Of a stretch of DNA of 44,257 nt, positions 2,154 to 42,875 are shown one piece after another. The stretch lies in the NCBI GenBank assembly GCA_026414955.1, contig JAOAIA010000001.1:1-44257 (forward strand), read 5' to 3'. Origin of the DNA: Candidatus Bipolaricaulota bacterium. Lineage in GTDB: Bacteria > Bipolaricaulota > Bipolaricaulia > RBG-16-55-9 > DRXL01. The notes under the pieces are model-generated. The model was not told the DNA's origin. It worked only from the letters and a program-made list of their open reading frames with translations, and did not search any database. The position numbers and the translations under genes are program-made. Numbering within the stretch: the first letter of the stretch is position 1; the number at the start of each line of letters is the position of its first letter.

Positions 2154-3112
2154 ACATGAACTTCCATATTCGCGAATTCACTGCCGACGATTACACGGCT
2201 ATCGCCGAGATCGGCAACGCGATCTACCCCGACTATCGCTCCAGCGCCGACGAGATCCGCTACGACGACGAGCACTTCGATAAAAAATATATCTTCAAAC
2301 GCTATGTCGCTGAAATACAGAATCGGGTCGCGGGCTACGCGGAATATCATCACATGCCCGGCATGTTCCATCCCCAGAAGTTCTGGGTTTATGTCGGCGT
2401 CCATCCCAGCTTTCAAAAACGGGGCATCGGTCGGGCGCTCTACGAGAAGATCGAGACCGATCTGCGCGCGCTCAACGCCGTGCGCATCTTCACCAACACT
2501 CGCGAAGATTACCCGCGCAGCTTAGCGTTCTTGCAGAGAAACGGCTTTGCGGAAACCCAACGCTCTTGGGAGTCGCGCTTGAATGTACACACATTCGATC
2601 TCTCCAAGTTCGCGCACTATCTCGAAAGATTCTCGGCTCACGGTTTGACGATCTCCACGCTCGCGCAAGAACGCCAGCGCGATCCCGATTCTCTCAAGAA
2701 GCTGCACGAACTCTTTGTTCTCATTATGGAAGACGTGCCCCACCCCGATCAGTACACGCCCGTTGATTTTGAACACTTTCTGCGCTACAGCATCGAGCAC
2801 CCTGACACCATCGCTGATGGCTACTTCATCGCCAAGGACGGCGAACAGTATATCGGGCTGAGCAACCTCCGACGCAGCCAAGGCGAGCCAAAAGATCTAT
2901 ATCAAGGGCTGACGGGCGTGCGCCGCGAGTATCGCAACAGGGGCGTCGCTATGGCGCTCAAGCTCAAGACGATTGAATACGCGCGCGCACACGGGTACGA
3001 AGTCATCAAGACGTGGAACGACAACACGAATGTTGGGATGCTGGCGATCAACGAGAAGCTGGGCTTTGTGCGCCAACCGGCGTGGATCACGTTCGTGAAG
3101 GAGTTCGCATGA
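2150..3112 (+). CDS. tandem-GNAT N-acetyltransferase (two acetyltransferase domains)
   Basis: There are two acetyl-CoA binding motifs, QKRGIGRALY and YRNRGVAMALK. The start forms an ATGA overlap with the mazF stop. Confidence 0.8.
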   Translation: MNMNFHIREFTADDYTAIAEIGNAIYPDYRSSADEIRYDDEHFDKKYIFKRYVAEIQNRVAGYAEYHHMPGMFHPQKFWVYVGVHPSFQKRGIGRALYEKIETDLRALNAVRIFTNTREDYPRSLAFLQRNGFAETQRSWESRLNVHTFDLSKFAHYLERFSAHGLTISTLAQERQRDPDSLKKLHELFVLIMEDVPHPDQYTPVDFEHFLRYSIEHPDTIADGYFIAKDGEQYIGLSNLRRSQGEPKDLYQGLTGVRREYRNRGVAMALKLKTIEYARAHGYEVIKTWNDNTNVGMLAINEKLGFVRQPAWITFVKEFA

Positions 3113-4248
3113 CGACGCTGCCGGTGCTAGAACTAGAGGGCACGCCCTACGAGCAAGGGCTGGCGCACGGTCGGCTCGCGCGCGAGCGGATCGCGCAAAA
3201 TTTAGAGATTTATTTCTATCGCTTCGAGCGCGAGACGAAGCTTCCCAAAGCTGAAGTCTTGCATCGTGCTGGGCTGTATCTGGACGTGATCGAGAAGCTC
3301 ACGCCCCCCTACGCCGAAGCGATGCGCGGCGTCGCCGAAGGCTCCGGAAGAGAGCTTCTGGAGATCGCGGCGCTCAACGCACGCTATGAATTGATCTACA
3401 GCGAAGAGACGCGCAAAGTGCTCACGGCTGACCTACCCCCCTGGCCCCTTTCCCGTGTCGGAGAGGAGCGAGGGGAGAGGTCCGACGGCTGCACCAGCTT
3501 CGCCCTCTTGCCTACTAAGACTGTTCACGGACACTTGCTCTTGGCTGAGAACTGGGACTGGATTCCCGATGTGCAGGGCTTAGTCCTAAAGATTCGCGAG
3601 CCGGGAGTGCCGGAGATCCTCTGCTTCACCGAGGCGGGGATCGTCGGGGGCAAGATCGGCTTGAACTCTTCGGGCTTAGGGCTTGCGATCAACGGCCTGA
3701 ACTCGGAGCACGACGACTGGGCACGGCTGGCGAAGCCCTTCCACGTGCGGTGCTGGGAGATCTTGCGCTGCGCGGACTTCGAGCAAGCCATAGGCGTCGT
3801 CACTGAAGGTCAGCGCAGCGTCTCCGCGAACTTTCTCATCGCCCAAGCGCCCGACAGAGCTATTAATCTGGAGACCGCGCCGACGGGCGTCCACGAAATC
3901 CCTCCTAAAGACGGTTGGCTCGCGCACACGAATCACTTTCTCGATCTGCACGCTATCGGCCTGACGCGCCGTATTCAGACCTCCAAGCGCCCCAGCACCG
4001 AGCAGCGACTCGCTCGCGTCCAGCATCTCTTGCGCACAAGCTCCCAGATTTCTCACGAGCGCGCGCTAGAAATCTTGCGTGATCACGATGATTTCCCGTA
4101 CTCGCTCTGTCGCCATCCCGACGAAGCTTTTCCGCCAGAAGAGCGTTACGCCAGCGTCGTCTCGGTCGTGATGGACCTCCACGAGGAGGCTCTCTCAATT
4201 GCACCTGGGCCGCCATGCCAGCATGAGTATCAAGCTCTGCACCTCTGA
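3109..4248 (+). CDS. C45-family Ntn hydrolase (acyl-CoA:6-aminopenicillanic-acid acyltransferase-like)
   Basis: MTTLPVLELEGTPYEQGLAHGRLARERI... followed by DGCTSFALL, the Gly-Cys autoprocessing/nucleophile site typical of the family, then ENWDW. The start forms an ATGA overlap with the GNAT stop. The upstream part of track ORF 3013.. overlaps the GNAT gene. Confidence 0.75.
   Translation: MTTLPVLELEGTPYEQGLAHGRLARERIAQNLEIYFYRFERETKLPKAEVLHRAGLYLDVIEKLTPPYAEAMRGVAEGSGRELLEIAALNARYELIYSEETRKVLTADLPPWPLSRVGEERGERSDGCTSFALLPTKTVHGHLLLAENWDWIPDVQGLVLKIREPGVPEILCFTEAGIVGGKIGLNSSGLGLAINGLNSEHDDWARLAKPFHVRCWEILRCADFEQAIGVVTEGQRSVSANFLIAQAPDRAINLETAPTGVHEIPPKDGWLAHTNHFLDLHAIGLTRRIQTSKRPSTEQRLARVQHLLRTSSQISHERALEILRDHDDFPYSLCRHPDEAFPPEERYASVVSVVMDLHEEALSIAPGPPCQHEYQALHL
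3430..3482. repeat. GC-rich palindromic element, family A copy (in-frame in the C45 hydrolase gene)
   Basis: GACCTACCCCCCTGGCCCCTTTCCCGTGTCGGAGAGGAGCGAGGGGAGAGGTC. Its termini are inverted (GACCTACCCC / GGGGAGAGGTC) and are shared with the copies at 33184..33236 and 23217..23263. Confidence 0.7.
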
Positions 4249-8811: not shown

Positions 8812-9300
8812 TCTCAACCCCTGACGCAACAAGAGCAAGAACACCGCTAAGAAACCAAACGCGAGTAACAAGACCCAGCCAAAGCTCAACGATATCGTGA
8901 CACTCAACGCCGTTGCCCCCAAAATCCCAGAGATTAGCACAATCGCGCCCAGACGCCATAGATGCGTCCGCACTAGTGCATCAGGCACCTCGGAGTAAGG
9001 AGCCAAGCGCCGCGCAAAAAGTTCCGCATCCCACGCGATCAGCCCGCAGAGCGCACTGCCCAAAGCCGCCCACTTATTGAGGATCGTCCCAACCGCGCTC
9101 GCCGCGAGGAGCACGAGCAGATTGACCGACGCGGGCCACGCCCAGCGCCACAAGCTTGTCACCAAGGCGAGAAGCCCTAACGCACCCGCGAGCCCAGCCC
9201 AGAGCCACTCCCCACGCATCAACCAGGTCAACGCTAATATCCCATACCCAAGCAACCAACTCGCCCGCCCTATGCCCCAAAGCACTCTTTGTGCTGTCAT
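8767..9300 (-). CDS. 4-TM membrane protein, last gene of MoxR operon 1
   Basis: MTAQRVLWGIGRASWLLGYGILALTWL... The ATG at 9300 overlaps the DUF58 stop (TAATG). The tail is hydrophobic throughout except for the part derived from the repeat. Confidence 0.6.
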   Translation of the reverse strand: MTAQRVLWGIGRASWLLGYGILALTWLMRGEWLWAGLAGALGLLALVTSLWRWAWPASVNLLVLLAASAVGTILNKWAALGSALCGLIAWDAELFARRLAPYSEVPDALVRTHLWRLGAIVLISGILGATALSVTISLSFGWVLLLAFGFLAVFLLLLRQGLRAREGGGGGEEGPPP

Positions 9301-10649
9301 TATCGAATTGCTCCGCGACGGATGAGCGCCGCTCGCCAAGCCATCCGCCCCAGCTCGCTGCGCAGAACCCCGGCTAACGGCTGAGAGACATCCCAGTCCA
9401 CGACGCGAATCCCCGCGCGGCGCACCTGCGCCAGCAGCGCCCGACGCCGCAAATACTCTAGTCTGAGGGCCAATTCTGTCTCCGGCGCTCGCGCTACGAA
9501 TGCGCTCTCAAACAGCACGGGATTGGGAGCGACGCAGAGCACTTCGTAGCGCAGGCGCAGATCAACAATGGTCTTGACGTCGGATTCCAAAATCGGGCCG
9601 ACGAAGACCAACTGCGAGCCTGCAGGCAGTAATCGTGTTGGCAGGTTCTCTAAGTCCTCGAAGACGGCCTTATCGCCCTTTTCAGCCGAGGCGATAGCTC
9701 GCGAGAGCTTCTCCCGCTGCCAGCGCCCAAACCCCGGCCAGGTCCAGTCCAAATACTTCCCGTAGATGAGCAGCCCGACCCTGTTGCCCTGAGCCGTGAA
9801 GTACTGAGCTAATGAGAGCGCCGCGCGCACGCTGTGCTCGAAGAGCGAGGAGGCCCTCACCCCCAGGCCCTCTCCCGTTCTACGGGAGAGGGGTGGCGTA
9901 GCCAGGGTGAGGGCCACGACATCGCTGCGCTCGCGCGCATCTAAGAGAATAATCACGTCGGCGACGCGCTCCTGCTCAAACTCGTTCACAATCAGCCGAT
10001 CTTTGCGCGCCGTCGCCTTCCAATTGATATACCGGCGCTCGTCGCCGGGATAGTATTCTCTCACCCCGAAGAACTCTATCCCCGTGCCGCCCAGACGCGC
10101 TTTAATTTGCCCGGAGAAGATGCGCGTCCGCCGAGGACGGATGAGAATCTCATCGAGCCGCTCAAACGTCGGGACGATCAATAATTCGCTCTCACACGGG
10201 AGTTTCATTCTCTCGACGAACAACCCCAAGGTATCCGTGGCTGTGACTGCAAGCTCTTCCCAGCGGGCGAGGCCGCGCATACCCGTCACCGTGTACTCAA
10301 GGGCAATCGTCGCTCCCGCGGGGATGGCCTCAACCTTGGTGGGACTTTGAGAGCGCACGGTGAGCTGCGAAGGGACTGTATCGGCCAGCTCGACGAGGTC
10401 GAGCTTCGGCCCAAGATTTTTAAGCTCGACGCGCACTGTTACTCTCTCTTCGCTCGCGACGCGCTGGCCGCTCAGGCTGCGGTGCACTTTCAAAGTAATC
10501 TGGGGCAGGGCGAAATATGACCCAAGGGCAAGATAGCAGATCAACGGGAGCGCCACGACTAAGAGTTCCCCCTGGCGCAGGATCTCGCCGATCAGAATCA
10601 AGAGAAACGCTGCGCCACCGAGAAAGGCCCAGCGGCGCGGACCAAGCAT
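9300..10649 (-). CDS. DUF58-family protein (MoxR partner)
   Basis: Two N-terminal TM segments are followed by GIEFFGVREYYPGDERRYINWKATARKDRLIVNEFEQE, the DUF58 signature. ATG 10649 lies 2 nt after the MoxR stop. Confidence 0.8.
   Translation of the reverse strand: MLGPRRWAFLGGAAFLLILIGEILRQGELLVVALPLICYLALGSYFALPQITLKVHRSLSGQRVASEERVTVRVELKNLGPKLDLVELADTVPSQLTVRSQSPTKVEAIPAGATIALEYTVTGMRGLARWEELAVTATDTLGLFVERMKLPCESELLIVPTFERLDEILIRPRRTRIFSGQIKARLGGTGIEFFGVREYYPGDERRYINWKATARKDRLIVNEFEQERVADVIILLDARERSDVVALTLATPPLSRRTGEGLGVRASSLFEHSVRAALSLAQYFTAQGNRVGLLIYGKYLDWTWPGFGRWQREKLSRAIASAEKGDKAVFEDLENLPTRLLPAGSQLVFVGPILESDVKTIVDLRLRYEVLCVAPNPVLFESAFVARAPETELALRLEYLRRRALLAQVRRAGIRVVDWDVSQPLAGVLRSELGRMAWRAALIRRGAIR
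9852..9915. repeat. GC-rich nested palindromic element, family B copy (in-frame in DUF58)
   Basis: GGCCCTCACCC-ccagg-CCCTCTCCCG-ttcta-CGGGAGAGGG-gtggcgtagcca-GGGTGAGGGCC, with perfect 11-bp outer and 10-bp inner stems. It encodes ...ATPPLSRRTGEGLGVRA... Confidence 0.8.
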
Positions 10650-10651
10650 AC

Positions 10652-11605
10652 TCACTCTATCTTCGGTACAGGGACGCGCTCTAATATTTCTGAGACGATA
10701 TCGCGCTCGGAGAGCTTCTTCATCCATAGTTCGGGTTGTAAGATCAATCTATGGGCGAGCGCCGCATGAGCTATAGACTTGACATCGTCGGGGATCACAT
10801 AATCGCGCCCCTCTAGGGCTGCTCGCGCACGCGATAACTTCAGCAACGCTAATGAGCCGCGCGGACTGGCCCCGACTAAGACCCTCCCATCGGCGCGCGT
10901 CGCCCGCACCAGCTCGACGATATATCGCTCGATATCCGGGTGCACGAAGACCGTCTCTAGCGCGTGGCGCATCGCCAGCAGCTCTTCAGAGTTTAAGACT
11001 CTCTGAAGCTGCGGCTCGTCAGCACCGCGCTCGCGGCGGCGTCTCAAGATCTCTTGCTCGTGCTCCGCCGACGGATACCCCAGCGACAGCCGCACCATAA
11101 ATCTGTCAAGCTGCGCTTCAGGCAGAGGGAACGTCCCTTCAAATTCGATGGGGTTCTGCGTGGCCATCACAATGAACGGGTGGGGCAGGGGGAGTGTCTG
11201 CCCTTCCAAGGTCACGTGAAACTCCTGCATCGCTTCCAGAAGCGCCGATTGTGTCTTCGGCGACGCGCGGTTGATCTCATCGGCTAAGATCAGGTTGGCA
11301 AAGATCGGCCCTGGGCGCAGCTCGAAGCGCCCACTATGACGTTCATAAATATACGTCCCGGTGATGTCGCCGGGCAAGAGATCGGGTGTGAACTGAATTC
11401 GCTTAAATTCCAAGCCCAACACCGCTGCGAAGCTCTTCGCTGTAAGCGTTTTTGCTAAGCCTGGTAGATCCTCAAAGAGAATATGTCCGCCCGCAAGCAC
11501 GGTGATCAAGACTTGCTCTAATACGGCACGCTTGCCGATGACGGCCTTCTCGACTTCATCTAAGATCTTCTGTGCGTTCTCCGCGATGGTCGCGACGGCG
11601 TTCAT
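10652..11605 (-). CDS. MoxR-family AAA+ ATPase
   Basis: Walker A is DLPGLAKT and Walker B is LILADEINRASPKTQSALLEAMQE. QNPIEFEGTFPLPEAQLDRF is also present. Confidence 0.9.
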   Translation of the reverse strand: MNAVATIAENAQKILDEVEKAVIGKRAVLEQVLITVLAGGHILFEDLPGLAKTLTAKSFAAVLGLEFKRIQFTPDLLPGDITGTYIYERHSGRFELRPGPIFANLILADEINRASPKTQSALLEAMQEFHVTLEGQTLPLPHPFIVMATQNPIEFEGTFPLPEAQLDRFMVRLSLGYPSAEHEQEILRRRRERGADEPQLQRVLNSEELLAMRHALETVFVHPDIERYIVELVRATRADGRVLVGASPRGSLALLKLSRARAALEGRDYVIPDDVKSIAHAALAHRLILQPELWMKKLSERDIVSEILERVPVPKIE

Positions 11606-19188: not shown

Positions 19189-19264
19189 TGGTGCCGAGGG
19201 GCGGACTCGAACCGCCGACACCAGGATTTTCAGTCCTGTGCTCTACCAACTGAGCTACCTCGGC
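19189..19264 (-). tRNA. tRNA-Phe (GAA), CCA encoded
   Basis: The reverse complement is GCCGAGGTAGCTCAGTTGGTAGAGCACAGGACTGAAAATCCTGGTGTCGGCGGTTCGAGTCCGCCCCTCGGCACCA, which folds as a perfect cloverleaf. Confidence 0.95.
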
Positions 19265-19333: not shown

Positions 19334-19410
19334 TGGCGGGGATGACGGGATTTGAACCCGCGATCTCTGCCTTGACAGGGCAGCGTGTTAGGCCACTACA
19401 CCACACCCCC
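19334..19410 (-). tRNA. tRNA-Asp (GUC), CCA encoded
   Basis: The reverse complement is GGGGGTGTGGTGTAGTGGCCTAACACGCTGCCCTGTCAAGGCAGAGATCGCGGGTTCAAATCCCGTCATCCCCGCCA, with anticodon loop CTGTCAA. Confidence 0.9.
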
Positions 19411-22400: not shown

Positions 22401-22658
22401 GAGCGCATCGGGCTGTTCGCGCGCGATAATTTTTTCTACAATCTCTGGGACGAGCGGCTCGAGGTAGACGCGCGAGGCGCTCTCCGGGTCGGTCATGATC
22501 GTGGCGGGGTTGTTATTGACTAAAATCACGTCGTAGCCCTCTTCGCGGAGGGCTTTACAGGCTTGGCTGCCGGAATAATCAAATTCCCCGGCTTGGCCGA
22601 TGACAATCGGCCCGGAGCCGATCACTAAGATTCTTTTCAGATCAGTGCGCTTTGGCAT
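19446..22658 (-). CDS. carB: carbamoyl-phosphate synthase large subunit
   Basis: The 1070-aa product starts [33 protein letters not shown]. It has duplicated ATP-grasp halves (second half [24 protein letters not shown]) and a C-terminal MGS-like domain. Confidence 0.97.
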
Positions 22659-23764
22659 GTTCGGGAGCTTTTTATGAATTCGAAGAACTGATCGAAGAGC
22701 GAGAGCGCGTCATGTGGCCCCGGCGAGGCTTCGGGGTGAAACTGCACCGCGAAGATCGGGAGTTTTTTATGCCGAAAGCCCTCGACCGAGCCGTCGTTGA
22801 GATTGATGTGCGTCAGCTCCAGCTCTGGGGGCAAGTCTTTCAGGGCAAATCCGTGGTTGTGCGAGGTGATCTCGACTCTATGTGTTAGGAGATTCTTGAC
22901 GGGCTGGTTGGCGCCGCGATGGCCGAATTTTAACTTATACGAGCGCGCTCCCAGTGCTAAGCCTAAGATTTGATGGCCCAGACAGATCCCGAAGATCGGG
23001 CAGCGCTCAGACTCTATGAGCTGGCGCGCTGTGCGGATTGCGTCTTTGAGAATAGCTGGATCACCAGGGCCATTGGAGAGCAGAATACCGTCGGGTTTGA
23101 GCCGAAGAATCTGCTTGGCGCTCCAGAACGCTGGGACGACCGTGACCTTTCTCGCTCGTGCGCGCAAGTTTCTGAGAATGTTGCGCTTGACGCCGAAGTC
23201 CACCACAACGATGTGAGACCTCTCCCCCTTCTCTAAAAGGGCAGTAGGCCAAGGGGGTGGGTCTTCCCATTTATACGGCTCGGTGCAGCTTACCCTGTAG
23301 ACCCAGTTCTCTTCAGAGATCGTCGGAGCGCGGCGGGCGCGCTCGACTAATTCGTCGGGATCGCTCTCAAAGCTCGAGAGACACCCGCGCATCGCGCCGC
23401 GCTCGCGGATATGCCTCGTGAGGGCGCGCGTGTCTACCTCGTACAGCCCAATGATCTTGTGCTCTTTGAGATAGCGATCTAAGTCCATCTGGCCGCGCCA
23501 GTTCGAGAAGTTCTGCGCAAGCTCACGCATGATGAACCCGTTCACCCAGGGGCGAGCAGACTCGACGTCTTCAGAATTGACTCCGTAATTCCCGATATGG
23601 GGGTAGGTCATGCAGACGATCTGGCCCGCATATGATGGATCTGTAAGAATCTCTTGGTAGCCGGTCATGGCTGTATTGAAGACGACCTCGCCGCAAATAA
23701 TTCCCTGAGCGCCGCAGGCGCGCCCGTAGAAGATTTTTCCATCTTCGAGGGCTAGGAGTGCCAT
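22637..23764 (-). CDS. carA: carbamoyl-phosphate synthase small (glutaminase) subunit
   Basis: [10 protein letters not shown]... is followed by class I GATase motifs: GICLGHQ (Cys), HGFA and [11 protein letters not shown] 23764 is preceded by GGGGAGGG; the track start at 23782 is a GTG upstream of that SD. There is a 22-nt overlap with carB. Confidence 0.93.
23217..23263. repeat. family A palindromic element copy (in-frame in the carA linker)
   Basis: The minus strand reads GACCCACCCCCTTGGCCTACTGCCCTTTTAGAGAAGGGGGAGAGGTC. It shares 15/17 5'-terminal and 11/11 3'-terminal bases with the 3430 copy. It encodes [15 protein letters not shown], compared with PPWPLSRVGEERGERS at 3430. Confidence 0.6.
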
Positions 23765-23782
23765 GAGAACCCTCCCCGGCAC

Positions 23783-26571: not shown

Positions 26572-27894
26572 ATGCACAGCATACGACTGCGAGGCCTGTA
26601 CGCCACAGCGTTAGCAGCCCTGCTGCGCGAACACCACTGGCGGATCGTGCAGCCTCATGAGGAGCTTCAGCCCTATACCGACCCAGAGGACTGCTTCGCC
26701 CCCTTTGACGCGGAAGTCAAGGATCGCGAGGATCGTCAGGGCGTCATTGTCGTTGGGGAGGCAGGTTCTGTCCATGCTTTCAAAGAGCTGCTCTTTGCCG
26801 AGCTGCCGGACGTCATCGGCGTGCTGGCGCCGACGGAGCTGGGAGCGATCTATCTGGGGGTTGTGCACAAGCAACGCGCGTGGGGCTACGAAATAGACCT
26901 GGGAGGTCTCACGGGCTTCCTCCCTCGGCCGGAGCTGGAGCGGCCCTTGAAGAAGGGTGAGGCCGTGCGTGTCCAAGTCAAAGAGATCGCGCTCTCCCAC
27001 CCCATCGTGACGACCCACCTCAGCCTTGCCGGGCAGCTCGCGGTGCTCTCGCAAGAGCAGGGTGTGGGTATTAGCAAAGAGATCACTGACCCTGATGAGC
27101 GCGAGCGGCTCTTGAGTCTGGGAAGAAGATGCTGCACCAACGGCTGGGGAGTGATCTGGCGCACCAGCGCCTATCGTCAAGACGAGCGCGCACTCCAGCA
27201 AGAGATCAAGCACTTGCAGCAGAAGCTCCCCGCCCTCGACAGCCATCCCGACGAGGGCATCCCCGGCAAGCTGCTCGCCGGTCAGCAAGCCCTCATCGTC
27301 GAATTCCCCGGCGGCAGCAAAGAGACGCTCGATCGCTGGCGCGCACGCTTGATCCCAACAGAACCGGGATATCATCGTCAGATGGTAGGGGCAGGTTCTG
27401 AACCTGCCCCTACCACGGGGAACGCAGGGGATCGCGTGCGCATCGAGCACGTCAAAGCGCAGAGCGATCTCAGTATCGTTATGACCGGTCGGGTTATCGC
27501 AGCGAGCCCGGAACAGATCACGGTGCGCCGCGAGATCAAGGGCTTAGGGGTCTACGACGGGCTGAATATCCCCAAAGAACCCGGCGACTATGCCGTGACG
27601 GTATTCTGTCACGGAGCCTGGCACTACGAGACGCGCTACTACGCCCGCGACGGGCAGCTCAAGGGCGTCTATATCAATATCAACACGCCGATAGAGATCT
27701 ATGCGGATCGCGTGCGCTATATTGATTTAGAGATTGACGTGGTGCAGCGCCCCGGTGAGCCGGCCCAGATCGTTGATGAGCACGATCTCCAGCGTATTGT
27801 GAGCTTTGTGAGTCCCCGACTCCTCGAGCAAGCACGCGCCGTCGCTGCTGAGTGCGCACAATCACTGAATGCGCGCACTCGTGGCAGACCGTGA
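26572..27894 (+). CDS. FAU-1-like protein: RNase E/G-related N-terminal region fused to a C-terminal DUF402 domain
   Basis: The sequence starts MHSIRLRGLYATALAALLREHHWRIVQP. It has an S1-like segment GAIYLGVVHKQRAWGYEIDLGGLTGFLP and an RNase E/G-like segment LAGQLAVLSQEQGVGISKEITDPDERERLLSLGRR...GVIWRTSA. The C-terminal YININTPIEIYADRVRYIDLEIDVV is the DUF402 signature. The track start at 26506 would overlap rtcA divergently. Confidence 0.65.
   Translation: MHSIRLRGLYATALAALLREHHWRIVQPHEELQPYTDPEDCFAPFDAEVKDREDRQGVIVVGEAGSVHAFKELLFAELPDVIGVLAPTELGAIYLGVVHKQRAWGYEIDLGGLTGFLPRPELERPLKKGEAVRVQVKEIALSHPIVTTHLSLAGQLAVLSQEQGVGISKEITDPDERERLLSLGRRCCTNGWGVIWRTSAYRQDERALQQEIKHLQQKLPALDSHPDEGIPGKLLAGQQALIVEFPGGSKETLDRWRARLIPTEPGYHRQMVGAGSEPAPTTGNAGDRVRIEHVKAQSDLSIVMTGRVIAASPEQITVRREIKGLGVYDGLNIPKEPGDYAVTVFCHGAWHYETRYYARDGQLKGVYININTPIEIYADRVRYIDLEIDVVQRPGEPAQIVDEHDLQRIVSFVSPRLLEQARAVAAECAQSLNARTRGRP
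27384..27414. repeat. perfect 15-bp-arm palindrome (GAGxxPAPT-type element), in-frame in the FAU-1-like gene
   Basis: GGTAGGGGCAGGTTC-t-GAACCTGCCCCTACC. It encodes VGAGSEPAPT between the RNase-like and DUF402 parts. Confidence 0.8.
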
Positions 27895-31607: not shown

Positions 31608-33197
31608 ATGGATTCGTTCAAGACAGTGTGCGCGCGGCTGGTGCGGCGCCAACGGTTCCTACACGGTTTGAGCGCCGCTCGGTGGACTCTGATGGCAACG
31701 CTCGCGCTGACAGCGATCACGCTGATACTCCAAGCGTTGAAGATCGTGCCCACTCTCTCCCCTCTGTGGCTGCTGGGCGGGAATCTCGCTCTCGCGAGCG
31801 TGGCGTTCGCATGGGGCTGGCTCAGGCCCGTCAATCTGACGGAGATGCTCTTTCGCGCCGACCGCAACGCCCACACTGAAGAGAAGCTCGTCACACTCTA
31901 TGAGCTTTCCCTGGGGCAGGCTCCCAGAGAGTTCCTCCCGTTGCTCATCTCTCGGCTTGGATCGCTGACGCTCGATCTCTCTACCGCCCTGCCCATCGGA
32001 CGGAGAGAGCGCAAGTTATGGCTCGGGGTGCTCGCCTTGGGCTTCGTATGCGTGGGGATGATCGGCGTCGTCCACGCTGGGGTTTTTGTGTGGGCACCGT
32101 GGGGCACTTCAGAGCAAGCGGTGTCTTCTCAATCGTCCGAGTCGGCCCAGGCGCCGCCACGCGAGATGCGCCTGGCTGACTTGGTGCAGCCCCCACCGCC
32201 GGAACTGGCGCAGAAGCTCGCAGCTCTGAGAGAGCGTTTCGAGCAAGCCCGTGCGGCGTTAGCGCAAAACCCCAACGATCCCCGCGCACGCGCCATCTTG
32301 CAACAACTTCAGGAAGAGATCCGCCAAGAGCAGGATCGTCTGGTGAGTCCGCCCCCGCTTGGCGAAGATCACGCTGCTCCTTCGGGGAAGCCCCGTGATG
32401 ACGCTTCTCTTGTAGAAAACCCCGCAGCCGATGTGCGGTCTCCTGAGAACACTGACTCTGCCTCAAGACAGACCGAGCTTGACAGATTGATGCGGATGTT
32501 GCGCGACATCCAGGGACAAGCGCAAGAGCTTTCACCCGAAGAGCTGCAGAAGCTCTTGGAGCAGCTCCAGCAAGAGAATCCCGATGCGGCATCTATTGCT
32601 CAGCAGGCCTTACAGATGGGCCCGAGCACCCAAGAGTTCAGCGAGAGGCTCGAAGAAGCTCTGAGAAATCTAGGAGCGCGTCGCGATCTCCATCAAGAGC
32701 TGGAGCAATTGCAGCGCGATGTGCAATCGGCACTCTCTCAATCCGAGCAGGCTGAAACAGCTCGCGGCGATGCACCGCCGTCGGGGGACGCGCAGCCGTC
32801 TTCAGAGGGTCCGCCAGACCCTCAGAACGCGAGCACAGAATCGGACTCTGACTCTGCAGAGGGGCCTCGACAAGAGAACGCGCTCTCGCAGCCGTCGGGC
32901 GGGCGCGGCAAGGCCCCCCTCGACCCAGAGGCTGTGAAAGACTTACCCGATCTGTCGCAGTTACGTGAGCACACACGCTCGTTCTCCGTCCCCGGCACAG
33001 ACGAAGAGAACCTCGAGATTCTCTTCGAGATCATCAGCACAGGGTTGCCGCAAAACCCCAATACGCCAGGGCAGCCCACGCCGGTCGAGATTGATTATCG
33101 TAAAGTCGAAGCGTTGATAGACGCGCTGGAGATCCCTAATGAGCTGCGCGACGCTGTGCGCCAGTATTTTCTGAGCTTGGCTAGACCTCTCCCCTAA
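31608..33197 (+). CDS. membrane-anchored acidic coiled-coil/low-complexity protein (possibly DUF4175-like)
   Basis: AAGGAGGAG precedes the ATG. Three N-terminal TM segments are followed by a long E/Q/P/A/D-rich region (LQQLQEEIRQEQDRL, LQKLLEQLQQENPDA). The stop codon lies inside the repeat at 33184. Confidence 0.6.
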   Translation: MDSFKTVCARLVRRQRFLHGLSAARWTLMATLALTAITLILQALKIVPTLSPLWLLGGNLALASVAFAWGWLRPVNLTEMLFRADRNAHTEEKLVTLYELSLGQAPREFLPLLISRLGSLTLDLSTALPIGRRERKLWLGVLALGFVCVGMIGVVHAGVFVWAPWGTSEQAVSSQSSESAQAPPREMRLADLVQPPPPELAQKLAALRERFEQARAALAQNPNDPRARAILQQLQEEIRQEQDRLVSPPPLGEDHAAPSGKPRDDASLVENPAADVRSPENTDSASRQTELDRLMRMLRDIQGQAQELSPEELQKLLEQLQQENPDAASIAQQALQMGPSTQEFSERLEEALRNLGARRDLHQELEQLQRDVQSALSQSEQAETARGDAPPSGDAQPSSEGPPDPQNASTESDSDSAEGPRQENALSQPSGGRGKAPLDPEAVKDLPDLSQLREHTRSFSVPGTDEENLEILFEIISTGLPQNPNTPGQPTPVEIDYRKVEALIDALEIPNELRDAVRQYFLSLARPLP

Positions 33198-33236
33198 CCC
33201 CTCCCCGACGCGGGGAAGGGAGCGAGGGGGGTAGGT
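33184..33236. repeat. family A palindromic element copy (supplies the last codons and TAA of the upstream gene)
   Basis: GACCTCTCCCCTAACCCCTCCCCGACGCGGGGAAGGGAGCGAGGGGGGTAGGTA. Its reverse complement shares 12/12 bases at each terminus (ACCTACCCCCCT, AGGGGAGAGGTC) with the 3430 copy and has the same 53-nt length. Confidence 0.75.
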
Positions 33237-33249
33237 AGAAAGGAGCCAG

Positions 33250-35095: not shown

Positions 35096-36801
35096 TCTTT
35101 CTGAACGCCTGGGCGTTTGGGCTGTTGGGCTTAGCTGGCGTGATCGCGACGCTCTATTTCCTACGGCCGCGCGAGGAGCGCCTGACGGTCTCGGCCCTGT
35201 GGCTCTGGCCCCAAGAGCCGGAGCACCCGCGCAGCGCCCTCATGTTCTTATGGACAAAAATTTGGCTCTTATTGGTGCAATTAGCCGCGCTGGCAGCGCT
35301 CGTCTTTGCGGTAGCCGCGCCCACCCTGCCCTCGGCAGTGCTCGGCGGCGGCACCCTTGCTCTGATCATAGACGGCAGCGCGAGTATGCAGACCCGCGAG
35401 CGTGAGCAGACGCGCTACGAGCGCGCGGTTGAGATCGCTCAGGAGATCATCGCGCAACGACGTCCACGCCATCTCACGATCATTCAAGCGCAGCAGAGTC
35501 CTCGCTTGCTCGTCCCCTGGACGGAGGATCGAGATCGGGCTGTCGCTCTCTTGCGAGCCTCCCACCCGACACTCCAGAGCAACGCTCCCGAATCGAGCGT
35601 GCTTCAGCTTGTGCGCAGCCAGGGGGAGCTGGAAAGCTACGACGAGGTCATCTATATCAGCGATCGTCGTCCCGAGGGTGACGTGCTCACGAGCACGGTG
35701 ACGTGGGTGCCCGTGGGCGAGCCAAGAAGCAATTTCGCGATCACAGCGTTTGCCGCACGGTTGCTCCCAGAGAGCGCTCAGGGTGTCGCCCTGTGGGCGC
35801 GCGTCGAGAATTTCTCCTCAGAAGCAGTCGAGGGCACGTTCACGGTCTTTGCAGAAGACATGGAAGTCGCGCGCGACCATCTCCAGCTCGCACCCGGCGA
35901 GTATCGCTCAGTTGAGACGATAGTAGCGCGGAGCATCGGCGGGCGCTTCCGCGCCGTTCTCGATATCGAAGACGATTTCCCCTTCGACAACGCTCGCTAT
36001 GCCGTCATGCCGACGAGGCCGAAGCTGAGGGTCTTATGGCTGGGGGAGCGCAACTTCTTTCTAGAGCGAGCGCTCGCTCTCTTCGCCGATGCTCAGATCA
36101 CCGTGCTCTCAGATGCAGATATCGCCAATACAGAAGACTATGATCTAGTCATCGCTCACAATGCGGAGCTGCCTATCCTGCCCACTGGGCGGCTTTTCTT
36201 CATCAATAGCTCTGTCTCAGCAGTCGTCCGGCTCTCCGAGAGTTCTGGTGCGACAGGAGCACCCCAGTTCCTCCAGCCGGGGCACGCTCTTGTGCAGAAC
36301 CTGCGCCTGGAGCACTTTCAGGCATCACGGGTTCGGAGTGCTGAGTTCGCCCTTCCCGTGCAGACGTTGCTCGTCTTGGATGGTCACCCGATCTTGGCTG
36401 CGCACAGATCGAGTTCGCTGAGCTTGGTCTGGCTCGGAATAGATTTGAGAGCCTCGCCCTTGGTGCTCACGCCAAGCTTCCCTATTCTCGTGCGGAACGT
36501 CACGCGTTGGCTCTTCGCCGACTTGACTCTTCTTGGAGAACGCTTTGTCTCCGAGGAGTTCCCCAATCTGGGCTTTACGGAGCAGGGCGCGATCAACCTT
36601 GACCCACGGGAATCGCAAGAGATCAGAGTCCTTTCTGGTCCCTCTAGCGTGCCGCCTGCGGCTGGCCAAAGCGAACAGTCCAGACACAGCCTAGGCGCAA
36701 GAGGGCAGTCTCTGTGGCACTATGGAGCGTGGCTTGCCTTGGGCTTGCTCGTGCTCGAGTTGCTCTGGCATGACCGAAGGCTTTTGAGGAGATCTCTATG
36801 A
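35092..36801 (+). CDS. BatA-N (double-TM N-terminal) domain protein with a VWA-like MIDAS and a C-terminal TM
   Basis: The N-terminus is VIFLNAWAFGLLGLAGVIATLYFLRPRE...VSALWLW. LALIIDGSASMQT is a DxSxS motif. The start forms a GTGA overlap with the DUF58 stop. Confidence 0.7.
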   Translation: MIFLNAWAFGLLGLAGVIATLYFLRPREERLTVSALWLWPQEPEHPRSALMFLWTKIWLLLVQLAALAALVFAVAAPTLPSAVLGGGTLALIIDGSASMQTREREQTRYERAVEIAQEIIAQRRPRHLTIIQAQQSPRLLVPWTEDRDRAVALLRASHPTLQSNAPESSVLQLVRSQGELESYDEVIYISDRRPEGDVLTSTVTWVPVGEPRSNFAITAFAARLLPESAQGVALWARVENFSSEAVEGTFTVFAEDMEVARDHLQLAPGEYRSVETIVARSIGGRFRAVLDIEDDFPFDNARYAVMPTRPKLRVLWLGERNFFLERALALFADAQITVLSDADIANTEDYDLVIAHNAELPILPTGRLFFINSSVSAVVRLSESSGATGAPQFLQPGHALVQNLRLEHFQASRVRSAEFALPVQTLLVLDGHPILAAHRSSSLSLVWLGIDLRASPLVLTPSFPILVRNVTRWLFADLTLLGERFVSEEFPNLGFTEQGAINLDPRESQEIRVLSGPSSVPPAAGQSEQSRHSLGARGQSLWHYGAWLALGLLVLELLWHDRRLLRRSL

Positions 36802-39383
36802 GCGTGAGCTTTGATACCCCGTGGATATTGGTCTGTTTAGCGGGGCTGGCCCTGTGGGTCTGGTTTTTGCGTGAGTATCTGCGCCACGCGCCCCTGGCAG
36901 ATCGCTGGGCTGCGCTCTTGCGCATCGGCGCTCTGGCTATGCTCTGTCTTGCTCTAGCGGGGCCAAGGCTCGTTCTGGGATCTTCGGATCGCTATATCTA
37001 TTTTCTCGTAGATCGCTCCGCCAGCGTCGGCGTAGATTCTGCGAAGATACTCGAGATCGTGCAGGCGCTTGCGCCCCCTGCGGAGAAGACTTCCTACGGC
37101 GTGATCAGCTTTGGTGCGGAACCCGCCATCGAAGCGGGCTTCGCTCCGGTGATTCAGCTCTCTGAATTTCAAACGGAACCCGGCAACACAGCGACAGACA
37201 TTGCCAGCGCGGTGCGCTTGGCGTTGGAGACGTTCCCGCGCTCTGGCCGTCGTGAGATCGTCTTGCTCACCGACGGGCAGATGACTGCAGGGGATCTCAC
37301 CGTGTTGGCACGGGCGCGCCGCGACGGCGTCCCCATCCATGTCTGGCCCCTCGGAGAAGGCTCTTCAGAAGCCTGGGTGCACGATCTCCAGATTCCCCCT
37401 GAAGTCACCGCGCAGGTGCCCTTCTCGCTCCGGGTGCAGATCGGCGCGACGACTGAGGGGCAGGGCACGCTCTTGCTCTATCGCAACGAAGAATTGATTC
37501 ACAATATCTCGGTGCGCTACCGCCCCGGCGTCCAAGAGATGCATCTCACGGAGAAGCTCGACGCCCCGGGGGCCTATGCGTACAGAGTCTATCTCAAAGC
37601 CGACGCGGATCGCTTGAAAGAGAACAATGAGCTGTATGGGGCTACGATGGTGCCTGGTGACCCTCAAGTCTTGCTCGTGGAGCGCTCTTCGGGCGGCGAA
37701 AGCCCTGTCGCACGGCTGTTGCGCAGCGCGGGGTTCGCGTTTGTGCAGAAGGCTTTTGAGACGTTTACTGCCAATCCTATAGTGTTGTCGGGGTATAAGA
37801 CCGTGATTCTGAATAATGTCCCCTTGGGGCGGCTCACGGCAGAACAGCGACGCGCCCTCAAACGCTTCGTCGCCGACGGGGGCGGGCTCTTTCTCATTCA
37901 AGGGCGCGAGGCCGTCATGGGCCTCGAAGAGCAGACCCCAGAAGAACTCGCTGATCTCGAAGAACTGCTGCCCATCTCGTATCTCGCTCCCGAACCCTAC
38001 CAGATTCCGGGATTAGCTTTAGTCTTCGTCATGGATCGCTCAGGGAGCATGGGCGATCCTGCGGGCCGGGGGGTTCCCAAAATCGAGATTCTGAAACGCG
38101 CCGCCCTGCGCAGCTTAGAAGTCTTGGATCGAGACGACTGGGTCGGGCTGATCGCTTTCGACACAGACTATACGTGGATCGTGCCCCTGCGGCCTCTCGG
38201 TGACGGCCATGAGTTCAGCACCAATATCCGAAGCCTGAGCGCCAATGGCGGCACCGATCTGTACTTCGCTCTTAAGGCTGCTTTTGAGACCCTGGAGAAG
38301 ACCCCGGCGCGCATCAAGCACATCTTAGTCTTTACTGATGGACACAACAACAACGAGCGCAGACGCGAGTACCAGGAACTCTATGAGCGTTTTGCGAAAA
38401 GCACGGTGCGTGTCTCGACGCTAGGGATTGATCGCACGCCCAACGAGCCGTTCTTGATGGAGCTGGCTGCAGCCGGGCGCGGACGCTATCAGCGGGTGCC
38501 GGAGTTTACAGACTTGCCGGCCTTCTCGTTGCGCGAGGTGCGGCGGATCGTGCGGCTGCGCTGGATCGAGGGCGAGTTAATGGTGCGCAGTAGCTCCCTC
38601 ACCCCCTTCTTCCCCTCTCCTTCCGAGGGGAGAGGGGCGAGGGGTGAGGGTGAGATCCCACCGGTCCAGGGCTATGTGCTCACGCATGAACGCGCTGCAT
38701 CGCAAACCCCCTTGCGCATCGCTCCTGATGGGAACCCGCTTTTAGCGTTTCACACCTACGGCTTAGGTCAGGTCGGCGTGCTCAATACAGATTTAGAGGG
38801 CGAGGGATCGCGTGATTGGCTGAGATGGGAGGGGCTAAGCAGTGTGATCGGCCCGGCCCTCGCCCGCGTCCACCGAGCGATAGCGAAAGAGCACGATATC
38901 GCTGTCCAGACAGTTGTGACTGACGAAGCCCTCGAAGTCATTGCTGACGTGCGCGACGAAGACCGATGGGTGTCGGGACTCGATCTGTACGCGAACGTGG
39001 GGACAGAGCGCGCCGTGCCCTTCCACCAAGTCGCGTCAGGGCGCTATCGCGCACGCTTCGAATCGTTGGCGAGTGGGCTGTACACCGTGCATATTATAGC
39101 GCAGCGCGACGGGCACACGGTTGCTGAAGTCAGTCGCGCATTCGCCGTCCCCTATCCCCACGAGTATCGCTCTATCGGGGTGAACGTCGAGATATTGAGC
39201 CAGATCGCTCGTGAGACGGGGGGGCAGTTCTTAGAGCGTCCGGTCTTGCCGCCGCCGGCGCGGGGGATCGGGCGCGAGGGCGCTCGCGAACTGTGGCCGT
39301 GGGCGCTGCTACTCGCGTTGGGGCTGTTCCTCGCTGATCTTGCTGTGCGCAAGCTCGGGTGGCTGTGGGACCGTCCGATTTGA
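36798..39383 (+). CDS. large membrane protein with two VWA domains and a GATase1-like middle domain
   Basis: The N-terminal TM pair is followed by YFLVDRSASVG (MIDAS 1). VILNNVPLGRL...FVADGGGLFLIQG has a class-I-amidotransferase-like fold pattern. LVFVMDRSGSMGD is MIDAS 2. A C-terminal TM is present. The start forms an ATGA overlap with the upstream stop. Confidence 0.75.
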   Translation: MSVSFDTPWILVCLAGLALWVWFLREYLRHAPLADRWAALLRIGALAMLCLALAGPRLVLGSSDRYIYFLVDRSASVGVDSAKILEIVQALAPPAEKTSYGVISFGAEPAIEAGFAPVIQLSEFQTEPGNTATDIASAVRLALETFPRSGRREIVLLTDGQMTAGDLTVLARARRDGVPIHVWPLGEGSSEAWVHDLQIPPEVTAQVPFSLRVQIGATTEGQGTLLLYRNEELIHNISVRYRPGVQEMHLTEKLDAPGAYAYRVYLKADADRLKENNELYGATMVPGDPQVLLVERSSGGESPVARLLRSAGFAFVQKAFETFTANPIVLSGYKTVILNNVPLGRLTAEQRRALKRFVADGGGLFLIQGREAVMGLEEQTPEELADLEELLPISYLAPEPYQIPGLALVFVMDRSGSMGDPAGRGVPKIEILKRAALRSLEVLDRDDWVGLIAFDTDYTWIVPLRPLGDGHEFSTNIRSLSANGGTDLYFALKAAFETLEKTPARIKHILVFTDGHNNNERRREYQELYERFAKSTVRVSTLGIDRTPNEPFLMELAAAGRGRYQRVPEFTDLPAFSLREVRRIVRLRWIEGELMVRSSSLTPFFPSPSEGRGARGEGEIPPVQGYVLTHERAASQTPLRIAPDGNPLLAFHTYGLGQVGVLNTDLEGEGSRDWLRWEGLSSVIGPALARVHRAIAKEHDIAVQTVVTDEALEVIADVRDEDRWVSGLDLYANVGTERAVPFHQVASGRYRARFESLASGLYTVHIIAQRDGHTVAEVSRAFAVPYPHEYRSIGVNVEILSQIARETGGQFLERPVLPPPARGIGREGARELWPWALLLALGLFLADLAVRKLGWLWDRPI
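38596..38650. repeat. family B nested palindromic element copy (in-frame in the VWA gene)
   Basis: CCCTCACCCC-cttctt-CCCCTCTCC-ttccga-GGGGAGAGGGG-cgag-GGGTGAGGG. It encodes LTPFFPSPSEGRGARGEGE. Confidence 0.8.
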
Positions 39384-42548: not shown

Positions 42549-42875
42549 TGGCTCCTCGGGCAGGATTCGAACCTGCGACCCACCGGTTACGAGTGCCCTA
42601 ACATTTCTGCTAGGCTCGGACTATCTCTTCACCCGCTCATGGGAGAGCTAAGGGTGTCGGGCGCTTCTGAGGCCTTATTGGTATGGGCTACTCAGCCTCT
42701 AGTCTCTGCACGTTCCTGCCTACACTATGGCCCTTCGGCAGGCTTCGCTCAGGGTTACCATTCCAGCTCTTTCGGCTGGGGCGGGCTTCCCTGAATTCAC
42801 CCGATTTTTCAACCACGGTTTCCCGTGGAAGCTGCATTACTACAGCCGGTTGCTCTACCGCTGAGCTACCGAGGA
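42549..42875 (-). tRNA. tRNA-Asn (GUU) interrupted in the anticodon loop by a group I intron (exons 42875..42842 and 42589..42549)
   Basis: The joined exons read TCCTCGGTAGCTCAGCGGTAGAGCAACCGGCTGT+TAACCGGTGGGTCGCAGGTTCGAATCCTGCCCGAGGAGCCA. This gives a perfect cloverleaf with loop CTGTTAA. The acceptor and G73 are as in E. coli tRNA-Asn. Confidence 0.85.
42590..42841 (-). ncRNA. group I self-splicing intron (IC3-like core, no ORF)
   Basis: P1 pairs exon GCUGU with guide GCAGC, placing U.G at the splice site. P2 is CCACGG-GAAA-CCGUGG, P3 is UCGGGUG/CGCCCGA, P4 is CAGGG/CCCUG, P5 is CCAGC/GCUGG, P6 is CCUGCC/GGCAGG and P7 is GACUA/UAGUC. The intron ends in G. The core string AGAGACUAGA is as in the Azoarcus intron. 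Confidence 0.8.

Follow-up and report, generated by a model that had tools for sequence, protein, structure and literature searches.

The stretch of DNA analysed in this study (the window, 44,257 nt) is contig JAOAIA010000001.1 of GenBank assembly GCA_026414955.1, a metagenome-assembled genome (MAG) of a Candidatus Bipolaricaulota bacterium that comprises 1.35 Mb in 170 contigs, with 58% GC and 72% completeness. The MAG and the contig are called G000 and C79 below, and other genomes and contigs are labelled in the same manner. Near the start of the window lies a gene for an N-terminal nucleophile (Ntn) hydrolase of the peptidase C45 type, and a GC-rich palindromic element of 53 nt (3430-3482) is inserted into its open reading frame (ORF) just before the Gly-Cys of the predicted autoprocessing site. 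A preliminary description made from the sequence had interpreted the element as a multi-copy palindrome that is tolerated as a peptide insertion; this interpretation is supported here, and the description as a whole was confirmed in part. Copies of the element were searched for at the genome level and analysed for their distribution, host genes, structure and probable origin.

The element and its host protein

The full sequence of the element is GACCTACCCCCCTGGCCCCTTTCCCGTGTCGGAGAGGAGCGAGGGGAGAGGTC, with GACCTACCCCCC as the left and GGGGAGAGGTC as the right terminus, and the host ORF reads across it as ...TA-DLPPWPLSRVGEERGER-S-D-G-C-TSF, so that sequence and translation agree with the position and frame given in the preliminary description. 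The last two bases of the element are the first two of the Ser codon, which is followed by Asp (3484-3486), Gly (3487-3489) and Cys (3490-3492). As single-stranded DNA the element folds into an imperfect hairpin (-11.6 kcal/mol for one strand and -12.9 for the other, z about -2).

By its family domain, its Ntn fold and its conserved Gly-Cys the host protein fits the peptidase C45 group of Ntn hydrolases, also known by the Pfam name AAT (scores are listed in Table 1). Its closest solved relative is the acyl-CoA:isopenicillin N acyltransferase (AAT) of Penicillium chrysogenum (2x1c/2x1d/2x1e), which has the same fold and the same Asp-Gly/Cys motif (the slash marks the scissile bond) at 25% identity, whereas the bacterial protein has 17 extra residues directly upstream of the predicted scissile bond. 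When the two were aligned by phmmer, residues 10-99 and 126-370 were matched to 2x1d, residues 100-125 were skipped and the Asp-Gly-Cys motifs fell on each other. In the AlphaFold model of the host protein (mean pLDDT 82, pTM 0.86), pLDDT falls below 50 exactly at residues 109-126, which form the only long low-confidence coil and are placed between the last helix of the alpha-subunit (93-107) and a strand (130-134) that begins just after Cys129; the top Foldseek match of the model was the precursor structure 2x1c_A. G128 and C129 are invariant in all of the 18 orthologues aligned below, and Asp-Gly/Cys is thus kept beside the insert.

In the AAT enzyme (2x1c/2x1d), the N-terminal part remains bound as the alpha-subunit after cleavage at Gly/Cys. 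By analogy, the N-terminal part of the host protein would be the alpha-subunit of an AAT-type Ntn hydrolase and not a discarded propeptide. The preliminary description had proposed to check in a structural model for a surface loop on the propeptide side, and the model bears out the low-confidence loop before the Cys but places it in the putative alpha-subunit. After self-cleavage the insert would become a free, floppy C-terminal tail of the alpha chain, which would be a plausible reason for its tolerance.

Two repeat families confined to one lineage

The most over-represented 11-mers of the G000 genome are the cores of two palindromic repeats, named here families A and B. Family A, to which the focal element belongs, has the form GACCTCTCCCC-N3-CCCCTCCCC-loop-GGGGAGGGG-N3-GGGGGGTAGGTC, and family B the form (G)CCCTCACCCC-N3-4-CCCCTCTCCC-loop-GGGAGAGGGG-N3-4-GGGGTGAGGG(C). 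A family A profile was built from ten copies of the genome, and nhmmer searches against the whole G000 genome, with loci counted at E<0.01, returned 42 loci of family A and 91 of family B (133 in all), so that the element is multi-copy, as the preliminary description had supposed. The terminal 11-mer of family A, GACCTCTCCCC, occurs 32 times in G000 versus twice in the reversed control. Counts of the A terminus were 4-68 in genomes of the same genus and 8-23 in those of the sister genus, versus 0-2 in reversed controls, and were near background in other families of the order and class; the B terminus (4 to 204 copies) is distributed in the same way. Families A and B are confined to one lineage. 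No Rfam family was matched by the element copies, and the literature search found no paper on such repeats for Bipolaricaulota/Acetothermia, returning CRISPR mentions only.

The loci were sorted with a codon-usage log-odds classifier that was trained on 439 long ORFs and required a coding signal on both flanks. Among the 133 loci, 41 (about 31%) were classified as internal and in frame, 17 as giving a C-terminal tail and stop, and 75 as intergenic or other. Pfam analysis of 12 host proteins returned domains for 11 of them; the element lies within the matched domain span in PurD, a penicillin-binding protein transpeptidase (PBP/FtsI), LipB, an ABC ATPase and FeoB, and adjoins the domain in RluD, FolC and MnmA. 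The encoded peptides are always Pro/Ser/Leu-rich first and Gly/Glu/Arg-rich thereafter. Both orientations of insertion are nearly equally frequent (9 versus 7 copies in family A and 13 versus 12 in family B), and no target-site duplication was found at 16 full-length family A copies or at the empty/filled pair of cassette sites described below.

Insertion polymorphism at the C45 site

A search of 41 related genomes recovered orthologues of the host gene from 24, and 18 sequences were aligned, namely 11 from genomes of the same clade and 7 from outside the genus. Eight of the former carry an insert, and the segment is absent from the other three (G006, G007 and G010, all of the same genus) and from all 7 outside orthologues. 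The empty sites read ...AAG GCC CTC GAG CAC TCC GAC GGC TGC, and that of G000 reads ...CTC ACG GCT (51 nt) TCC GAC GGC TGC, which is a clean insertion of 17 codons between Ala and Ser-Asp-Gly/Cys. Comparison with orthologues that lack the segment, as the preliminary description had proposed, therefore reveals a net insertion of 51 nt. Family A occupies the site in three genomes, with net lengths of 51 nt in G000 and, in longer forms at the same codon, 78 nt in G001 and 75 nt in G008; family B occupies it in five genomes, with a net length of 57 nt and a start 6-9 nt further upstream. Each net length is a multiple of 3, and the frame is kept in all versions.

The tree of the C45 genes groups G000 (family A) and G015 (family B) as sisters (99/98 support). 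The approximately unbiased (AU) test rejected monophyly both for the A-bearing genes (p=0.0009) and for the B-bearing genes (p=0.0002), and it did not reject a single clade of all filled genes (p=0.31); the tree is therefore compatible with single as well as multiple insertion at this site. The 24-nt flank upstream changes along with the type of the element, encoding VTKQAL in the family B genomes and in G008, and ETRKxL in the empty sites, G000 and G001. Since these flanks differ in type despite the closeness of G015 to G000 over the whole gene (82-95% identity in sliding windows), a short patch has been exchanged or overwritten more than once, be it by new insertion, replacement or allelic recombination.

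A separate observation concerns G015, a genome assigned to another genus. Its C45 gene (L002) is the closest to that of G000 (L001), with 84-85% identity, and its carA is among the most distant, unlike its C45 gene; transfer of genes between genera, or recombination between them, may lie behind this contrast.

The DUF559 cassette

Small DUF559 genes (PF04480, E 1e-27 to 1e-41) were identified in 7 genomes of the same genus, and the full form of family A, which is seen in congeners, is a cassette of 464 nt, in which the terminus GACCTAACCCCC, a subterminal hairpin, the DUF559 gene (for a Vsr-like PD-(D/E)XK endonuclease), a second hairpin and the terminus GGGGAGAGGTC follow one another. The A-type cassettes of G004, G012 and G006 read GACCTAACCCCC-TGA-CCCCCTTCCC...GGAAGGGGG on the left and ...CCCCTCCC-TCTTTA-GGGGAGGGG-GTG-GGGGAGAGGTC on the right. 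The C-terminal residues of the DUF559 protein, ...SPPSLGEGVGERS before the stop (tail ...LGEGVGERS), are encoded by the right hairpin and terminus of the cassette, and the C45 insert (...VGEERGERS) shares the orientation and reading frame of this tail. In G009, G012, G003, G007, G004 and G002, DUF559 genes lie between B-type ends. The DUF559 protein matches PDB entry 3hrl (E=3e-20) and is a member of the Vsr/DUF559 clade of PD-(D/E)XK nucleases, which includes a group I intron homing endonuclease (PMC3424549).

When the 40- and 41-nt ends of the G004 cassette were joined and compared with solo (gene-less) copies that have two hairpins, among them the C45 inserts of G001 and G008, 69/83, 69/81 and 71/85 alignment columns were identical (83-85%), end to end. 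The G000 insert, which is 27 nt shorter (net) than that of G001, aligns to the joined ends over 44 of its 53 bases with a gap of about 28 columns. Like the repeat family and the insertion polymorphism, this structural identity of solo copies and cassette ends is a direct observation. According to the alignments, the C45 inserts of G001 and G008 (75-78 nt) are cassette ends joined without the ORF, and the G000 insert is a degenerate solo made of the joined ends with a further in-frame internal deletion of 27 nt. The element is more than a plain palindrome, since it derives from the two ends of a cassette that sister genomes have intact.

The cassettes lie at genomic sites that are shared between species, and three of these sites were inspected in G000. 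At the A-type cassette site of G004 and G012, G000 carries a hybrid solo (C144:4026-4098) whose left arm is of the B type and whose right terminus is of the A type, together with a CCCCTCTCCC hairpin, and its right junction is identical to that of the cassette. Another site is cleanly empty, GCGAGGAAT being joined directly to TAGAAGAAATCC with no duplication, and at the third the synteny is broken. A larger DUF559-like ORF of G000 (C102:4994-5785) was considered as a cassette and rejected, having no family A or B flanks.

Other copies in the window

The coordinates of the elements and their host genes in the window are listed in Table 1.

Table 1. Repeat elements of the window and the genes that carry or adjoin them
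Feature	Position	Strand	Evidence
Single-hairpin solo element of family A with internal deletion; net insertion 3430-3480 (51 nt, 17 codons)	3430..3482	+	nhmmer (E=6.9e-13), empty/filled orthologous sites, alignment to cassette ends
Acyl-CoA:6-APA acyltransferase-type (peptidase C45) Ntn hydrolase, host gene	3106..4248	+	Pfam AAT/PF03417 E=2e-15; phmmer to 2x1d E=3e-29; model TM 0.82 to 2x1c_A
Gly-Cys codons of predicted autoprocessing site (G128-C129 of 380-aa translation)	3487..3492	+	invariant in 18/18 aligned orthologues; aligns to 2x1d Asp-Gly-Cys
47-nt copy of family A, translated within carA (16-residue peptide), overwrites CPSase_sm-GATase linker	23217..23263	-	nhmmer E=1.9e-8; linker comparison
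carA, host of second in-frame copy	22637..23782	-	Pfam PF00988 + PF00117
Family A copy, antisense to upstream ORF; gives ORF codons RPLP + TAA stop, fills spacer before moxR (ATG 33250)	33184..33237	-	nhmmer E=6e-12
529-aa ORF without Pfam match; C-terminus and stop inside element	31608..33197	+	ORF reading, Pfam
Family B (BoxC/TM_ECO-like) element in frame in DUF58 protein (9300-10727, minus strand)	9854-9913		Pfam match ends at element
Family B (BoxC/TM_ECO-like) element in frame in 861-aa VWA-domain protein (36798-39383)	38596-38650		Pfam

Two further family A copies had been named in the preliminary description, which gave the one at 33184 termini and length identical to those of the focal element and stated that the reading frame is preserved at every copy. 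The 33184 copy is identical to the focal element at 45 of 54 positions; its left terminus does match at 12/12 positions, but its right terminus has a final A where the focal element has C, and an internal length difference of 1 nt is present. The shorter form was recovered as described, being identical to the focal copy at 38 of 53 positions. Preservation of the frame holds for the copies in the C45 gene and carA but fails at 33184, where the upstream ORF ends ...ARPLP-TAA within the element, the remainder of which lies in the 52-nt spacer preceding moxR. The carA copy is in frame, yet it is a replacement of linker residues with unchanged length rather than an added peptide: 27 residues make up the linker in G000 as well as in element-free genomes of the sister genus. 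In other congeners the carA linker is occupied by family B or by a third palindrome family, and the LipB loop resembles it in that native residues are replaced by the element. The third family found in frame (CAGGCTTCGCCTGGAC...GTCCAGACGAAGTCTGG) was observed in the LipB loop of G004, G006 and G007 (L063-L065) and in the carA linker of G007 (L027).

Origin and spread of the element

We consider it probable that the element at 3430-3482 is a gene-less remnant of a DUF559 nuclease cassette that is tolerated as a translated loop and whose spread may depend on DUF559. The solo copy would survive in the C45 gene because its net length is a multiple of 3. In this frame the arms would be translated with no stop, the pyrimidine arm into Pro/Leu/Ser/Trp and the purine one into Gly/Glu/Arg, and the product would be a disordered surface loop that leaves the native Ser-Asp-Gly/Cys intact; together, the frame, the lack of a stop, the disorder and the intact motif suggest a tolerated selfish insertion rather than an adaptation. 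Movement by the DUF559 nuclease is proposed with less assurance. The enzyme may act in trans, and the element may spread by break- or nick-induced short-patch copying, similar to homing, rather than by cut-and-paste transposition. Short-patch copying is favoured because duplications are lacking, codons of carA and LipB are overwritten, the C45 flanks (about 24 nt) change together with the element, and cassettes reside at conserved loci in the manner of the genes for REP-associated tyrosine transposases (RAYTs; REP, repetitive extragenic palindromic sequence). More tentatively, DUF559 genes and polypyrimidine/polypurine hairpins may possibly constitute a selfish system parallel to RAYT/REP, in which gene-less A and B ends spread by short-patch copying that overwrites DNA, including that for protein surface loops. 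If so, the pre-Cys loop of the C45 protein, the carA linker and the LipB loop would be filled, in a given species, by the family active there.

Several points weigh against this reading. No small DUF559 gene was found in the G000 assembly, which is 72% complete, and the copies of G000 may therefore be fossils; nor was a cassette seen in G008 and G005, both incomplete and rich in solos. The conserved cassette sites are apparently inherited vertically, so that mobility of the cassette itself is only putative, and we found no paper linking DUF559 to hairpin repeats or mobility. The turnover between A and B at the C45 site could be recombination between alleles instead of new insertion, autoprocessing of the host protein at Gly/Cys is assumed from conservation and from its homology to 2x1c/2x1d, and translation of the insert is likewise a prediction. 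Finally, all compared genomes are MAGs, the classifier behind the in-frame census is crude, and the accompanying Pfam analysis covers 12 hosts only.

Other sources of mobility were considered. Family A resembles MITEs (inverted-repeat transposable elements of miniature size) in its terminal inverted repeats (GACCT(A/C)NCCCC...GGGGNNAGGTC) and its length below 100 nt, and also in its high copy number and in being an internally deleted derivative of a longer element, so that a conventional MITE moved in trans by the DDE-type transposase of an undetected insertion sequence (IS) might be supposed. However, the missing target-site duplications speak against it, and the only longer element that shares the termini encodes a Vsr-like nuclease and no known transposase, in a search of transposase families that was not exhaustive; we judge a MITE origin to be improbable. 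Barely better are the prospects of a REP or REPIN-type element mobilised by a RAYT, which is an IS200-like Y1 transposase. REPs, too, are found as single and double units and lack target-site duplications, as here, and G000 does possess a RAYT-like gene (C90:2848-3405) that is 48% identical to same-genus homologues (tblastn) and whose product matches the NCBIfam model REP_Tyr_transpos with E=7e-15, below the cut-off of the model. Yet this gene is flanked by and contains another repeat, classical GTAG-headed REPs (GTAGGGGCGCAATTCATTGCGCCC), instead of family A or B; a 5' GTAG or CGTC head is lacking in family A; with the Pfam model Y1_Tnp (PF01797) nothing was found in G000 or in most of the 12 same-genus genomes searched; and the A and B termini flank DUF559 genes rather than RAYT genes. 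The RAYT was thus rejected as the mobiliser, since the RAYT-like gene has cognate GTAG REPs of its own.

The segment might also have been recruited to serve the enzyme, for instance by acting as a spacer peptide through which autoproteolysis or active-site access is tuned. The C45 loop is filled in 8/11 genomes of the clade by whichever family is present, and spacer peptides adjoin the cleavage site in some Ntn hydrolases such as cephalosporin acylases, several of which were among the Foldseek fold matches. Against this, the same DNA occurs in many unrelated proteins and in intergenic DNA, the peptide varies freely in sequence and length between species (17, 19, 25 and 26 residues), three congeners and all outgroups have no insert, and the insert is predicted to be disordered; a small chance, somewhat above that of either transposase, is left to recruitment. 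An ancestral low-complexity loop lost elsewhere, or an artefact of assembly, could appeal to the low-complexity composition of the segment and to nothing else. All outgroup orthologues are without the segment, its DNA is a genome-wide repeat (E=7e-13), and the insert recurs at the same codon in MAGs assembled independently in different studies; the empty outgroups, the filled and empty sites and the repeat match refute both ideas, which we hold to have almost no chance of being correct. A remnant of the DUF559 cassette is the preferred explanation.

Other repeats and features

Some further repeats and genes were recorded. The RAYT-like gene of G000 is preceded by GTAG REPs (GTAGGGGCGTGATTCATCACGCCCCTAC), and two more lie in frame within its coding sequence (...VGAQFIAPYTYRGAMNRAPT...; C90:2680-3405). 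A perfect GTAG-type REP (GTAGGGGCAGGTTCTGAACCTGCCCCTAC) at 27385-27413 of the window represents a further repeat family, of which the 8-mer GTAGGGGC occurs 85 times in the genome. Another genome-wide repeat consists of TTCCGTG heptads, ends ...TTCCGTGATTCAAA and is present in 39 copies, often as divergent pairs (e.g. G000 C11:23560-23624). The 11-mer CTGTCTCTTAT has 27 occurrences in the assembly; we take it to be the beginning of the Nextera transposase adapter, in which case adapter would have been left untrimmed at contig ends of this MAG. The window also contains a complete group I intron at 42597-42851 on the minus strand (Rfam, 77 bits, E=4e-18) and three tRNA genes (1361-1434, 19192-19264 and 19337-19410).

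Significance and comparison with known systems

The results suggest that selfish hairpin DNA is tolerated by an uncultured lineage with a small genome, where some third of the copies form translated loops, and that one tolerated copy adjoins a self-cleavage site which depends on precise geometry. For annotation, Pro/Ser-rich and Gly/Glu/Arg-rich segments in this lineage should be read as repeat-derived inserts and not as lineage-specific functional motifs; such inserts can break the alignment of domain models, as in the DUF58 protein, where the match stops at the element.

The preliminary description had compared the element to the Rickettsia palindromic elements (RPEs; Ogata et al. 2000), which are about 150 bp long and lie in frame in ORFs (PMC10969869). 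A multi-copy palindrome that is tolerated as a peptide insertion is borne out by the high copy number, the restriction to one lineage, the presence/absence polymorphism at the C45 site, the in-frame copies and the disordered loop. According to the summary in PMC10969869, both are multi-copy palindromes, a large fraction of which is found in frame in unrelated housekeeping genes as peptide segments compatible with the fold. Compared by description, the present elements differ in being 47-90 nt long and GC-rich and in having polypyrimidine and polypurine arms in modules of one or two hairpins; their ends are also common to a nuclease-encoding cassette, and that summary mentions no such parent for RPEs. 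Being far shorter, of unrelated sequence and from another phylum, they are set apart by description from the RPE family and are therefore not regarded as members of it.

To our knowledge, the BoxC/PIT repeats have had no known origin since the 1990s, and the present analysis ties a repeat type related to them to a candidate enzyme, DUF559. The consensus of the intrastrand triplex motif (BoxC/PIT/TM_ECO) known from E. coli and other bacteria is CCCTCNCCC N3-6 GGGNGAGGG N3 GGGNGAGGG (Holder et al. 2015, PMC4666352), and family B resembles it in its blocks CCCTCTCCC, loop, GGGAGAGGG, short spacer and GGGTGAGGG. A relaxed TM_ECO pattern found 46 sites in the genome versus none in the reversed-genome control and fitted 37 of the 91 family B loci, and the strict consensus fitted one family B locus. 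Family A was rejected as a member of BoxC/PIT/TM_ECO, as 0/42 loci fit even the relaxed pattern. BLAST searches of A and B elements against E. coli genomes gave no match, which carries no weight with such short queries and the low-complexity filter on. The E. coli motif and family B have in common that their dispersal is unexplained and that the loci which hold them are unusually variable (PMC4666352). TM_ECO has been reported as always intergenic in E. coli and with no associated mobility gene (PMC4666352), whereas one copy in three is read in frame within a gene here, and DUF559 genes are enclosed by the ends.

The REP/REPIN-RAYT system differs from the present one in its enzyme, the HUH Y1 transposase, in place of which a Vsr-like PD-(D/E)XK nuclease (DUF559) is found here; a GTAG head is also lacking, and the RAYT-like gene of the genome has separate REPs. 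The two systems are nevertheless alike in that a single-copy nuclease gene resides at a conserved locus and is bracketed by hairpins, and in that the repeats are dispersed as singlets and doublets without target-site duplications (PMC3116915, PMC3733652).

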